From positions 1-64,000 of IMG/VR virus record IMGVR_UViG_3300032285_001029: a stretch of 64,000 bases of DNA; one strand, written 5' to 3'. The translations under genes and the position numbers were made by a program. The notes beneath the pieces are model-generated. The model was not told where the DNA came from. It saw only the letters and a program-made list of their open reading frames with translations, and did no database searches. Positions 13,704 through 18,573 of the stretch are shown one piece after another (the stretch's first letter is position 1; each line of letters begins with the position of its first letter). The stretch comes from a virus.

Positions 13704-15119
13704 TTATAGAGTATCGTTAGGAAGATTATTTAACAATTCACGCAGTTTTGAACTCTCTACATGTGCTTTTACTTTTGGAACAGGAGCACCATCTGCCGGA
13801 TCATCCTGTACTATGCTGCGCTGTTTAATGCTGTTTAATAACGTGCTGCCAGCACTCTGAGTGCCAGGATTTCCGTAGCCATCTTCGCCTTCTAAATCGG
13901 TAATCCTAAGTGTATCGACATTAAAATCTAAGTCAATTTTTTGTCCAACACCGCTACTGCTACGTGTTTTCATAAGCTGTATTTGGTATCTGCCACGTTC
14001 ACGCATTGCACGACTAGTAAAGATACCAAATACGTTATCAGCAGTTTGAATTTTACTCAATCCGCCTGAAATATGACTGTGATCAAACTCTACTTCTTCA
14101 ACTGCTCCACGATTTAACTGTGCTGCAGTTACAAATACACATTGCTTTTCTACTGCCAGATTACGCAGTTCTTCTGACACATATTTGTCTTTAACAAACA
14201 GATTTTCTGCACTGATTTTTTTAGATAAGGGCATCAATAAATCCATATAATCGACTAGTAATACATCAATTTTATGACCCATCTTAATTTCGTATTCTTT
14301 TAGATATGCTCTTATATCATTTGCATTCTTACCACTAGGCATGTACTTAACTTGAAAGTGTCCTGACTTTTTACCTATCATTTTAACTTTCATCTCAACA
14401 TCGTCAATGCTCTTAAAAATTTCTCTTGTTGGAATTCCTGTAGTCATTGCATCTACACGCATACATACCAGATCCTCTGACAGTTCTAGTGTAAGATACA
14501 ATACATTTAATCCAGCAAGAGCATAATTAACACCAAGATTAGCTAAGAATAAAGATTTACCTGCACCGGAGCCACCTGCCCATATATTAAGTTCACCGCG
14601 ATTAAATCCACCGTATAGCTTATCATCAATCGCTTTCCATCCTGTCGAGATTTGTCCATTTTTATCTTTAATACGTGCTAAACGTGATCTTGGATCGGCA
14701 AAATAATCAGTGCCCATGTCTTTCTGTAAACCAATCTGCACTGCCGCTTTAATCTTATCTTCAACGGGACCGTACTCTCCTTTTTCAAGCATGTCAGCGG
14801 ATTCTAAAATTGCTCTTTCTAATCCTTTGTGCCTAATAAATGTTTCAAAATCGCTCAGTAACCAATCAAAATGTTCTTCATGTAGATTATTTGGAACTTT
14901 AAAACTACTGTTTGTTGCAGCATTAATGATTTCCTCTGTAGGAACAACATTATGTTCATTAACATACCCTGAAATAAATTCTGCTGCTACCTGCAGTTTA
15001 CGATCAAACAATGTATAATCAAAAATGCTCTGACATCGACTAAATGTTGCCGCGTCCGCCAACATCATTTCTAAATATAACTTTTGTATATCGTAACCGT
15101 AGTCTGTGTTTTGTTTCAT
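13704..15119 (-). CDS. dnaB: Replicative DNA helicase (DnaB / T4 gp41-like)
   Basis: ISTGW..ID, Walker A GGSGAGKS, LEL, VDYMDL, AQLNR, KTR. Confidence 0.95.
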   Translation of the reverse strand: MKQNTDYGYDIQKLYLEMMLADAATFSRCQSIFDYTLFDRKLQVAAEFISGYVNEHNVVPTEEIINAATNSSFKVPNNLHEEHFDWLLSDFETFIRHKGLERAILESADMLEKGEYGPVEDKIKAAVQIGLQKDMGTDYFADPRSRLARIKDKNGQISTGWKAIDDKLYGGFNRGELNIWAGGSGAGKSLFLANLGVNYALAGLNVLYLTLELSEDLVCMRVDAMTTGIPTREIFKSIDDVEMKVKMIGKKSGHFQVKYMPSGKNANDIRAYLKEYEIKMGHKIDVLLVDYMDLLMPLSKKISAENLFVKDKYVSEELRNLAVEKQCVFVTAAQLNRGAVEEVEFDHSHISGGLSKIQTADNVFGIFTSRAMRERGRYQIQLMKTRSSSGVGQKIDLDFNVDTLRITDLEGEDGYGNPGTQSAGSTLLNSIKQRSIVQDDPADGAPVPKVKAHVESSKLRELLNNLPNDTL

Positions 15120-15328
15120 TTAATTTTCTCAAGTAATTCTTGTCTATATTCATCATTCCATTGCTGTTGTGTACTTACGGAAAGACACAACTCTATGGCT
15201 GTTTTAACTTCTTCGTTTGACAATGTTAAATCTTCAATAACTGCAAACAAGTGTTCAAACACATTTCTAGGTAATCCCGGTCCATCTGGTCCGCCGTGTT
15301 TAGGAATTTTTATTTCACGTTGAACCAT
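15116..15328 (-). CDS. Hypothetical protein
   Basis: 70-aa ORF overlapping both primase and helicase genes. Confidence 0.5.
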   Translation of the reverse strand: MVQREIKIPKHGGPDGPGLPRNVFEHLFAVIEDLTLSNEEVKTAIELCLSVSTQQQWNDEYRQELLEKIK

Positions 15329-16314
15329 TTTTTAGCTCTTAATTGTATTTTGAGATTGCTGTGCTCTTTAGCATTAATAATTAGCCATAGTGTTGCAAGT
15401 TTGCCTAATTTAATTACAGCATCATTAACATCTTTAACACTATCTGGCCATTCGGGCATACTAACACTCCAACCGAACTCTAATGCCTGCTCTACTGTTT
15501 TGTGTCCTTCATGATCTCGATCCGGTACTAGGATAATTTCTCGATTTAATCGCTTCAAAAGCCAATTTTGTTGATCCTTGATTTCAGCACCTAGTAGTGC
15601 GCATCCATCAATACTAATAGCATCCATCGGACCTTCGCATACAATTACGAACGCACGATCATGCGGATTTTGTTGATCTAGATTGAAAACATACCCAGGT
15701 TGTTGCTCCGACAAATATTTAGGTTTGGCATCATTAATTGCCCGAGCGGTCCAGCCAACAATCTTTCCTTCATATAAAAACGGTATTATTAATCGATTTT
15801 GAAATCCAATCTTATCTGAATAATAAAATGGATAGGACAACGGATTAATGCCTCTATTGTTAACGTAGTTAACTACGTCTATCAGTCCTTTAGGCGTAAC
15901 GTTCAATATGTTATCATCTGCAAGAGTCAACCAGGTATGCCAAGCTGCAAACTCTTTGGCATCCATAGGAAGAGCTCTTTCATGGAATATTGGTATTAGA
16001 TCTTTTACAAGATTATTTTCTGTTTCATTAAGTTTAAGAGCTTCTAATGCTAATTTATTAATTAAATTGTCGTCCATGTTTAATAACTTCATGAACTTGC
16101 GCATTTTATGACTTAGTGTACGTCCAGGTTGCCAGCTGCATTTAAATTGACAATTGAAGCAGTGATAGCTTACAGCATCGCCTGCATTAAAGATTATACC
16201 GCCTCGACTTCGTCTATCATCGCAACAAGGAGCATTAAATCCAATCCAACCGCTAGGAGTTGATTTCCTTTTATGTGGAAGATATGCTCGGATAGATTCT
16301 GTGATTAGGCTCAT
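15310..16314 (-). CDS. dnaG: DNA primase (T4 gp61-like)
   Basis: N-terminal Zn finger (PCC...HCFNC), RLIIPF, KYL, Toprim EGPMDA, DRD, KDVND. Confidence 0.92.
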   Translation of the reverse strand: MSLITESIRAYLPHKRKSTPSGWIGFNAPCCDDRRSRGGIIFNAGDAVSYHCFNCQFKCSWQPGRTLSHKMRKFMKLLNMDDNLINKLALEALKLNETENNLVKDLIPIFHERALPMDAKEFAAWHTWLTLADDNILNVTPKGLIDVVNYVNNRGINPLSYPFYYSDKIGFQNRLIIPFLYEGKIVGWTARAINDAKPKYLSEQQPGYVFNLDQQNPHDRAFVIVCEGPMDAISIDGCALLGAEIKDQQNWLLKRLNREIILVPDRDHEGHKTVEQALEFGWSVSMPEWPDSVKDVNDAVIKLGKLATLWLIINAKEHSNLKIQLRAKKWFNVK

Positions 16315-16350: not shown

Positions 16351-17416
16351 CTGTACCGGAATAGTTTGAGCCTGACACTTTAAAGGTATCTGTGCCAAGA
16401 ACTGATGTACCAATCCAAGTGACTCTAGAGATTGAACTAACAGTATAACTGCTAATAGCACCTGCTTGATCAATGCCACTAACTTCTATGATTAGATCAT
16501 TAGTAACATCTACTCCACCAAGTTGACTACCTGGAACTTTAATTAATGACCCTCTACTGTAATTAGTTCCGCCTTGATCAACAGTTACAGAATATGATCC
16601 GTTAAGATTTTGAGAAACATTGAAACTAGCACCAACTCCTGCGATAGAATTAGTTTGATAACTGACTCTGAACCAACTATAGTCTCCGATAGTAACATTT
16701 TGCGCAAATGGAATAGTTCCGTAGAATAAACCGTCTTCTAAACTACGATTCCACGACCCAAATGGTTTACCTGCCGATCTCCATGCTTCAGTGTTAATAG
16801 TGTCGCTAGTTGTCGCTTCTAACCAAATAGATCCTGTAAATCCTGTTGCCTGTATCACAAAACTCATTGAAGTGGTTTTTATTGCTTCGTAGAATTTTGA
16901 AGGTATTGCACTGCTATGAAAAATTGGAACACCTTTTATATCTATTTCGGATGTAAAATCTCGATAAACTTTTTCAGGCCTAGTAATAGGCAATGCTCTG
17001 TTTAATAGTTCCATAGTACCAACAGCATTGAATGAACTGTCAACATAAAACAGCACGTCATTGCCCGCAGCATCAGAGCCAGTTAGTGTGTATTTTAATG
17101 TTTGTAGATCCAAATCTATGATATCGTATAAGGGTATCGTTACTGTTGCAATACCTTTGATATCGGTAGTTGTTAACGAATACGACAACACGCTGTTGTA
17201 CTCAGCATCCATAACATTTAGTTTAATATCTTGGTACGTTGTCAGGTCGAGTCTTTTTTGATCCGTATTCATGATCTCAAATTGTACGGTATTATCAATA
17301 CCGCTATAAATTTTCATTGTTCTAGCGTACACTTTTTTAAACTCCGTTATGAAAGCTGCCGTATCTGCAATAGCAATTGATCTGTTTGGATATAAATAAC
17401 TTTGAATTTTTTGCAT
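16328..17416 (-). CDS. Putative virion structural protein
   Basis: Start adjusted to MQKIQSY; KIYSGIDN.VQF...N.DQK Ig-like N-terminus; GG.NY..G..I...G..LGG...NDL.I.V module also present in the giant fibre; late promoter 17439-17445. Confidence 0.55.
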   Translation of the reverse strand: MQKIQSYLYPNRSIAIADTAAFITEFKKVYARTMKIYSGIDNTVQFEIMNTDQKRLDLTTYQDIKLNVMDAEYNSVLSYSLTTTDIKGIATVTIPLYDIIDLDLQTLKYTLTGSDAAGNDVLFYVDSSFNAVGTMELLNRALPITRPEKVYRDFTSEIDIKGVPIFHSSAIPSKFYEAIKTTSMSFVIQATGFTGSIWLEATTSDTINTEAWRSAGKPFGSWNRSLEDGLFYGTIPFAQNVTIGDYSWFRVSYQTNSIAGVGASFNVSQNLNGSYSVTVDQGGTNYSRGSLIKVPGSQLGGVDVTNDLIIEVSGIDQAGAISSYTVSSISRVTWIGTSVLGTDTFKVSGSNYSGTVDSITVI

Positions 17417-17443
17417 ATCGAGCAAACCTTTATATACATATTT

Positions 17444-17821
17444 ATGGCGAAACTCCGAGGACAAGTAGAACAAAATCTCCCCTTTATTTCGGTACTAAAC
17501 TACGGTGAAAACGAGTATATTGGCATTATAATAAATCAAGACCAATATGTAACTAGTTTTTACGATTTAAATGCCATACATTCCGCCGACGAGAAAAAGC
17601 TATTTTTAGAAATTGGCGAAACTTGGTGGTGGGAAAGTAACAGACAGTTTCCGATATCTATTTTCTGCAGAGATCAAATACAGCCCTTTTCTTATGCTAT
17701 TAAAACATTTAACAGTAAAGATGTAAGGATTATACTAGGGCCAGTAGTAAATTTAATGAATCTTACCTTAAAGCGAGTAAAGAGGAAAAGTGTTCAATTG
17801 ATGCGAACTCCTCCAAAGTAA
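17444..17821 (+). CDS. Hypothetical protein (WWWESNR motif)
   Basis: Start adjusted to MAKLRGQ; perfect TATAAATA at 17391-17398. Confidence 0.65.
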   Translation: MAKLRGQVEQNLPFISVLNYGENEYIGIIINQDQYVTSFYDLNAIHSADEKKLFLEIGETWWWESNRQFPISIFCRDQIQPFSYAIKTFNSKDVRIILGPVVNLMNLTLKRVKRKSVQLMRTPPK

Positions 17822-17824
17822 TTT

Positions 17825-18391
17825 CTAAATACCTTCGCAAATTAAGTTCATGTGAACAATAATTAAATGAGCATAAGCAATAGCATGTGCTTTTTTAAAA
17901 TAATACTCATCATTCGTGGGTTTTGTCCAGACTTCTTCCATTATCGTAGTCCAATCTTTCCCAATCAAATATCTCTTCGCTGGGCGAATCATTGCTAGGA
18001 CCGCAGCTAATTGTTCCACAGAAGTAGGGCAACATTTTTTCAGAATTCCATCGTGGCCATTCAAATGAAATAGTAGATCGACGAAGTCTTTTTGTTGTAA
18101 TAGTTCCCATAAAGGTTCAGTCTCCATTAATTTTAATAAATGTCCTCTGTCACGGACATGTTCATAGACATTAACATTAAGAAAGTCTATTTTAAAATAA
18201 CCTCTATTTTCGGCGTCTTTATAATCAATTGTACTTATGTTTGTAATCGGATTATAGGGAATAGAAGTGCAATAGATACCAGTATTATGCTTTTTAAAAT
18301 TACCAGTTTGATCTTTTATTGCCGCAACAACGTGCTTGATTTTATCAAGTGCAATAGTTCTATCTGCAAAATCTATATCAATATCTGGCAT
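17825..18391 (-). CDS. dnaE: Miniature DNA polymerase III alpha (DnaE)-like catalytic core
   Basis: PDIDIDF, KHNTG, GYFKIDFL, LAMIRP, YFKKAHAIAY in DnaE order within 188 aa. Confidence 0.85.
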   Translation of the reverse strand: MPDIDIDFADRTIALDKIKHVVAAIKDQTGNFKKHNTGIYCTSIPYNPITNISTIDYKDAENRGYFKIDFLNVNVYEHVRDRGHLLKLMETEPLWELLQQKDFVDLLFHLNGHDGILKKCCPTSVEQLAAVLAMIRPAKRYLIGKDWTTIMEEVWTKPTNDEYYFKKAHAIAYAHLIIVHMNLICEGI

Positions 18392-18573
18392 TAGTGTTTG
18401 ACGCTGGATTCAAATAATAAAAAGGGTAAATTCTCGGCAAGATAATCTGCATAGTTTTCTGCATCTTCCATTTCTTCAAATCCAGATAATTTAACATATA
18501 TGGATAAATCTTCTTCACTAACAATTACTTCTAAATCTAAAGGAATTTTTCCTTCTGTATCTTGATGCATCAT
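18391..18573 (-). CDS. Small acidic hypothetical protein
   Basis: 60 aa, start/stop overlaps with both neighbours. Confidence 0.6.
   Translation of the reverse strand: MMHQDTEGKIPLDLEVIVSEEDLSIYVKLSGFEEMEDAENYADYLAENLPFLLFESSVKH

Follow-up and report, generated by a model that had tools for sequence, protein, structure and literature searches.

The DNA analysed here, referred to throughout as the window, is a stretch of 64,000 nucleotides from an uncultured phage (positions 1 to 64,000 of IMG/VR record IMGVR_UViG_3300032285_001029); its source record is a linear viral sequence of 141,855 bases, estimated to be 38% complete. The window carries an intact minus-strand open reading frame (ORF) for a protein of 188 amino acids, which we call the C-half, and the same gene has been called by independent pipelines on other contigs that encode an identical protein. 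A preliminary description, made from the sequence letters, had read this frame, with five listed motifs, as a minimal C-family polymerase. Both the frame and all five motifs are present in the window, and the motifs follow one another in the order found in DnaE (Table 1).

Table 1 The C-half gene, its motifs and its neighbours in the window.
Feature	Position	Strand	Remarks
C-half CDS (188 aa)	17825..18391	minus	Intact ORF, ATG start; phrog_11778, E 4.7e-64; model pLDDT 96.9
PDIDIDF, residues 2-8	18368..18388	minus	D3, D5 correspond to E. coli DnaE D401, D403; D7 conserved too
KHNTG, residues 34-38	18278..18292	minus	H35, G38 nearly invariant; palm beta-hairpin replacing the thumb region (model)
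KIDFL, residues 67-71	18179..18193	minus	K67, D69 correspond to E. coli K553, D555 (third catalytic Asp)
LAMIRP, residues 132-137	17981..17998	minus	Fingers motif; corresponds to E. coli ALFRPG, ending at residue 641
FKKAHAIAY, residues 165-173	17873..17899	minus	Fingers motif; corresponds to E. coli FNKSHSAAY 756-764
Acidic 60-aa ORF	18391..18573	minus	Translationally coupled (TAATG); no PHROG match
Upstream gene, 231 aa	18570..19265	minus	phrog_11058 (E 1.7e-58), function unknown; often immediately upstream of the C-half in relatives
Superfamily-2 helicase, 488 aa	21138..22604	minus	Pfam ResIII/DEAD/Helicase_C; DNA helicase at the equivalent Phosso position
Convergent downstream gene	17402..17821	plus	phrog_11637 (E 7.7e-32), function unknown; conserved neighbour of the C-half
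Toprim primase	15310-16314	minus	Weak Toprim_2 match
DnaB-type helicase	13704-15119	minus	PF03796 DnaB_C

The coupling to the upstream gene that had been described earlier is real, because the stop codon of the one frame and the start codon of the other overlap by one base in TAATG. A role for this strongly acidic 60-aa ORF as a third polymerase subunit was considered and rejected as a general feature, because no more than 19 of 73 related loci have a homologue in the slot upstream of the C-half; elsewhere, the slot is empty or taken by another small ORF. With no conserved partner in it, the slot looks variable, although the gene directly downstream of it is conserved. One of the alternative small ORFs in this slot shows the pattern CPxKW...ETGE, possibly a zinc ribbon.

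Beyond the coupled ORF, the C-terminal sequence of the phrog_11058 gene is found again in many related loci, where it immediately precedes the C-half. On the downstream side, a gene in the position of the convergent phrog_11637 gene also lies next to the C-half in Sinorhizobium phage Phosso, and a homologue adjoins the fused gene described below; a functional link between this gene and the C-half is possible, as is simple persistence of the two genes side by side. The replication gene block that holds the C-half also includes the DnaB helicase and Toprim primase genes (13704..16314), in the same order as in Phosso. Overall, the gene order common to the window and Phosso runs from the superfamily-2 (SF2) helicase through several small genes, the C-half, the convergent small gene and a structural gene to the primase and DnaB.

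Family, conservation and fold of the C-half

Comparison with PHROG profiles assigned the 188-aa protein to phrog_11778 ('DNA polymerase'), residues 3-186 corresponding to profile positions 8-193 of 197, with a further match to positions 578-678 of phrog_405 (E 1.5e-5). None of the curated Pfam thresholds for DnaE models was passed and PF07733 was not matched; the sole Pfam match, to the finger domain PF17657, scores 11.5 bits and so stays below the cut-off of 22. Searches with tblastn revealed homologues in 96 isolate jumbo phages at 38-53% identity, some of them annotated as 'DnaE-like DNA polymerase III alpha', so that the window C-half is at most 53% identical to the protein of any isolate phage. 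The genomes of these isolates span ~280-490 kb, except for one unannotated 94-kb record among the matches listed, and they include Phosso, Agrobacterium phage Atu_ph07, XacN1 and SCTP-2 as well as PA5oct-like Pseudomonas phages and 121Q/PBECO4/RaK2-like enterobacterial phages. Metagenomes hold more than 8000 C-half clusters at 90% identity, which is a lower bound, and 424 clusters at 50% identity with E <=1e-3. Judged from sequence, the resemblance of the ORF to DnaE is far beyond chance, given the strength of the phrog_11778 match (E 4.7e-64) and these 424 clusters.

Conservation was assessed in 86 full-length representatives of clusters at <=50% identity. K67, D69, R136 and P137 are present in all 86, D3 and D5 in 84 and D7 in 83; within FKKAHAIAY, H169 is retained in 84, and K166 and Y173 are conserved as well. 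Across 295 pairs with dS <1.5, drawn from 78 related IMG/VR copies, pairwise Nei-Gojobori estimates gave a median dN/dS of 0.13 (range 0.04-0.25). The extreme reduction relative to DnaE, and the separation of this chain from the other part of the catalytic domain, might raise the suspicion that the gene is a fragment in decay, or that its product has lost catalysis and survives in a structural or regulatory role. The preliminary description had already argued against a pseudogene, and had named loss of the aspartates or neutral evolution among homologues as signs to the contrary. The homologues instead keep the catalytic residues invariant or nearly so (D3 and D5 in 84/86, D69 in 86/86) across highly divergent representatives and evolve at a dN/dS of ~0.13, and the family counts more than 8000 metagenome clusters at 90% identity. 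Conservation, dN/dS and family size therefore argue against a pseudogene or inert relic, which we consider scarcely credible.

AlphaFold2, supplied with an alignment of 85 divergent homologues, predicted a confident fold for the 188-aa protein (pLDDT 96.9, pTM 0.88). The 15 best PDB matches of this model in Foldseek are all C-family polymerases. In VIA-align, model residues 1-188 were superimposed on residues 461-836 of Taq Pol III alpha (Z 10.0, 186 residues aligned), 400-779 of E. coli Pol III alpha (Z 9.3, 183 aligned), 419-806 of Mycobacterium tuberculosis DnaE1 (Z 9.7, 186 aligned) and 971-1294 of Geobacillus PolC (Z 9.7, 185 aligned); the first unrelated chain scored Z 3.5, against Z 9.3-10.0 for the C-family.

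The same relationship is detected by a profile of the 85 homologues, which found E. coli Pol III alpha in the PDB at E 4e-6. This profile pairs K67 and D69 with K553 and D555 of E. coli DnaE (GLVKFDFLGL), IRP with FRP (639-640) and FKKAH with FNKSH 756-760, and MPDIDIDF is paired by sequence with residues 413-420 of M. tuberculosis DnaE1. The catalytic residues of E. coli DnaE are D401, D403 and D555. From the profile, DnaE1 and structural pairings taken together, D3, D5 and D69 are therefore equivalent to D401, D403 and D555.

This residue-level map also shows what the phage protein lacks. Its DxD strand and third aspartate are separated by 58 residues, compared with ~147 in E. coli (D405 to K553), and the thumb is therefore absent; about half of the fingers as far as E. 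coli residue 779 is missing, as is everything past that residue. Pfam found no PHP, HHH_6 or OB domain, and all 188 residues are taken up by the palm and fingers alignment, in agreement with the earlier statement that PHP, clamp-binding, helix-hairpin-helix (HhH) and OB parts are lacking. In Pol-beta-type folds, the nucleotide triphosphate is bound by a helix-strand-helix element with a G-S motif that precedes the DxD strand. The GRGS NTP-binding motif is not on the 188-aa chain, which starts at the DxD strand, at the equivalent of E. coli residue 400.

The claim of a minimal polymerase with all three catalytic aspartates consequently needs to be divided. The aspartates stand, but the protein is not self-contained, since the NTP-binding half of the palm with its GRGSS sequence is missing from it and, in the long relatives examined, resides in a separate gene of ~170 aa. 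Likewise, the internal deletions inferred earlier are clean with respect to the thumb and part of the fingers, whereas the N-terminal palm has been moved to another gene rather than deleted.

The N-terminal half in relatives and in a fused gene

We found this other gene, the N-half, in each of five long related IMG/VR records (180-358 kb), whose C-halves are 68-74% identical to the window protein. There, an ORF of 169-183 aa (stop to stop) lying 159-207 kb from the C-half gene matches positions 11-101 of PF07733 (E 1e-13 to 1e-10). These N-halves are assigned to phrog_11127 and end in ...KYNLDWREFLR, at the point where DnaE runs on into the DxD strand; GVGRGSS is nearly invariant among N-halves. 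Among the options that the preliminary description had offered, one subunit of a split polymerase is the one supported by this separate gene, present in every long relative examined (5/5). A single-frame family B polymerase (PolB) of ~900 aa is encoded in four of the five. In three of the five long relatives (G002-G004) the layout is alike: the C-half is found at ~7-37 kb, PolB within 165-219 kb and, on the same strand, the N-half within 190-245 kb.

Isolate phages show the same pairing. In Atu_ph07, gp316 (177 aa, 'DNA polymerase') aligns with PF07733 over profile positions 18-94, and its sequence stops at the point where that of the C-half starts. Isolate genera that have one half also have the other, and the two counts are almost the same (Escherichia 34/34, Pseudomonas 11/11, Klebsiella 11/10, Erwinia 8/8, Salmonella 8/8 and Xanthomonas 4/4). 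The C-half of 121Q is gene 16 (start 13,327) and its N-half gene 56 (match from 44,479), and in PA5oct the halves lie at ~144 kb and ~188 kb. In metagenomes, the N-half is about as abundant as the C-half, with more than 8000 clusters at 90% identity, again a lower bound. Separately, we observed that the family B polymerase of Atu_ph07 is annotated as two adjacent genes, gp276 and gp277 (417 + 565 aa; L002:21877-24846).

The preliminary description had proposed a search of the rest of the genome for complementary DnaE parts and a family B polymerase. The 141,855-base record was searched with PF07733, PF00136, phrog_11127, Atu_ph07 gp316, gp276 and gp277 and the N-halves of the five relatives, and with phmmer --max over all six-frame ORFs, and neither an N-half nor a family B polymerase was found in this record (best score E 0.16); in the long relatives the same search target is present, the N-half in 5/5 and PolB in 4/5. 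As the record is a 38% fragment, the absence of the N-half and PolB from it says nothing about the phage. Its C-half is located at 17.8 kb and the record ends at 141.9 kb. At the extreme end of the record, outside the window, lies a homologue (G000:C1:140197-141204, minus strand) of Atu_ph07 gp271 ('DNA polymerase I', E 1.7e-87), and gp271 is encoded ~3 kb from the family B polymerase in Atu_ph07; the main polymerase gene therefore probably lies shortly beyond the point at which the record ends. Going by the layout of the relatives, the N-half would be located past this end. Truncation is the simplest account of the missing N-half, and we infer the pairing of N-half and C-half in the phage of the window from the layout in its relatives.

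Additionally, we identified a single-chain form, P0214 (375 aa, L089:1066-2193), on a 2.4-kb ENA metagenome contig, in which an N-half and a C-half are joined by a linker of ~10 residues. PF07733 spans the junction (residues 97-207, E 4.8e-16), and the gene lying convergent downstream on the contig is homologous to the phrog_11637 neighbour in the window (E 2e-8). The C-part of P0214 groups with two stand-alone C-halves (95% SH-aLRT) in a tree that was built quickly, rooted at its midpoint and is poorly resolved elsewhere; one of these two C-halves has an unrelated small ORF and a stop codon upstream of it on its contig. The model of the whole chain is poor (pLDDT 67.8, pTM 0.40, with the catalytic sheet below 50), the alignment behind it containing few C-halves. 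Its confident N-part (residues 73-187) superimposes on E. coli 270-399 at Z 10.1 and on DnaE1 302-421 at Z 12.2, and E. coli 270-399 directly abuts the segment 400-779 that corresponds to the window protein. The joining of the halves in P0214 is 'Rosetta-stone' evidence for their acting as one enzyme, and this 375-aa fused form supports the proposal that the two halves may work together.

P0214 is the only fused form that we found: it has no relatives in IMG/VR, where none of 80 loci has an N-terminally extended frame. Three other candidates were discarded. P0121 (335 aa, ENA), in which a C-half is joined to the C-terminus of the neighbouring SF2 helicase, is an assembly chimera, with the sequence DVYKRQ, a translated Nextera transposase adapter, at the joint. 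A 'longer' homologue with PHP and exonuclease domains turned out to be a fragment match covering 15% of the query, and the match to P0128 (1386 aa), a low-complexity repeat, is a false positive.

These observations bear on whether the 188-aa protein could be sufficient by itself, as a minimal polymerase or transferase. In its favour, it is predicted to fold confidently alone, it has all three aspartates, and the 141,855-base record holds no partner. Yet it starts at the DxD strand, without the GRGSS NTP-binding element; that element is separately encoded in all five long relatives and accompanies the C-half across isolate genera; and a natural fusion of both halves exists. We therefore judge a self-sufficient protein to be very improbable.

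Possible activity and role

With a probability of roughly 0.8, the 188-aa ORF encodes the C-terminal partner of the N-half in the two-piece 'minimal Pol III alpha' known from group 2.2 jumbo phages. Together, the two chains would form a nucleotidyltransferase of the Pol-beta fold, ~360 aa in size, which would elongate a primer along a template. In such an enzyme, the N-half would position the triphosphate of the dNTP by means of its triphosphate-binding loop, and the C-half would bind two Mg2+ ions as well as touch both template and incoming base. The resulting mini-Pol III would probably serve as an auxiliary polymerase beside a T4-type family B polymerase, rather than as the main replicase, with repair, gap filling and short primer extension as candidate roles. 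As the PHP domain, thumb, clamp-binding motif and OB domain are lacking, it is expected to be poorly processive, and how a putative enzyme without thumb or clamp contact would hold DNA is a difficulty that we count against this explanation.

The same gaps would suit a two-piece enzyme that is real but is a specialised nucleotidyltransferase of the Pol-beta superfamily instead of a templated DNA polymerase, acting for example in untemplated nucleotide addition, in making a nucleotide signal, or in the synthesis or handling of modified phage DNA. Beyond the loss of the thumb, clamp-binding and OB elements with which DnaE holds DNA, this reading draws on the full family B polymerase that such phages already possess (4/5 long relatives, and the genomes surveyed by Iyer et al., cited below), and on a literature search that turned up no biochemical study in which polymerase activity or the formation of a heterodimer was assayed. 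Against it, the conserved residues outside the triad are the fingers motifs specific to Pol III (IRP and FKKxHxxxY), which align with the fingers of DnaE and not with other Pol-beta-fold transferases; the significant structural matches are all C-family replicases; and the gene is placed among primase and helicase genes. On this evidence, we consider a non-templated transferase unlikely.

Within the polymerase reading, the position beside the primase and helicase and the strict conservation allow a further, speculative proposal, namely that the paired halves form a dedicated hand-off or specialist polymerase and not a back-up copy of the replicase. It may be the enzyme that first elongates what the primase makes, ahead of the family B polymerase, or it may copy or repair modified phage DNA that the main polymerase or host enzymes may handle poorly. 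We regard this proposal as unlikely; were it true, the pair, a natural minimal scaffold made up of two chains with ~360 aa between them, would also be the most compact C-family polymerase core known to work.

Stand-alone Pol III modules had been guessed to be on record for other large phages, and this is the case. Iyer, Anantharaman, Krishnan, Burroughs & Aravind (2021, Viruses 13:63, PMC7824862) described a 'minimal, split Pol III alpha' in group 2.2 jumbo phages (RaK2, 121Q, PA5oct, Atu_ph07), where it occurs beside a family B polymerase; they suggested synthesis of one strand, or repair, as its role, and discussed the split form as a model for ancestral Pol III. A Pol III alpha gene is already listed in the Atu_ph07 paper, and PF07733 is the marker gene of the largest marine jumbo-phage cluster (Weinheimer & Aylward 2022, PMC9123017). 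The split mini Pol III alpha is accordingly real, conserved and already described, both in the 2021 literature and in PHROGs, and the window itself provides one more uncultured example. Our analysis adds the fused form, the figures on selection and abundance, and the residue-level map onto DnaE. The wider implication, which Iyer et al. had drawn before, is that a bacterial-type replicase can keep its catalytic core in the form of two small proteins, ~360 aa in total, and that this form is widespread.

Comparison with known systems

The phage protein shares with bacterial DnaE and PolC a Pol-beta-type palm, the DxD...D triad, the equivalent of K553 and the fingers motifs RP and F-x-K-x-H. It differs from them in size, with 188 aa against >1000 aa, in having no PHP domain, thumb, full fingers, clamp-binding motif, HhH, OB or tau-binding parts, and in that the first half of the palm is placed on another protein in the split phage system.

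A C-family polymerase encoded by two distant genes also occurs in cyanobacteria, where DnaE-n and DnaE-c are joined by protein trans-splicing through a split intein. In the phage system, by contrast, the split point is inside the palm domain and there is no room for an intein: the first residue of the C-half corresponds to E. coli residue 400, and the N-half ends in a DnaE-like ...FLR. The phage halves would therefore have to associate non-covalently.

Full-length DnaE is found in other phages, such as the group 3.2 jumbo phages exemplified by Bacillus phage G (PHROG 405), and its catalytic core is homologous to the one described here. In those phages, it is a host-like protein of ~1100-1200 aa with a PHP domain and serves as the main polymerase (Iyer et al., PMC7824862), whereas that of the window is minimal, split and, in relatives, accompanied by a family B polymerase.

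The closest comparison is with the split Pol III alpha of group 2.2 phages, whose C-half is PHROG 11778 and whose N-half is PHROG 11127. The window protein belongs to the same family by HMM and constitutes the same stand-alone Mg2+- and template-binding unit of ~190 aa, in a replication-gene context of the same kind and probably in the same kind of phage, with the N-half a distant, separate gene in relatives. Nothing essential is different; the copy in the window comes from an uncultured phage whose own N-half is not on its record.
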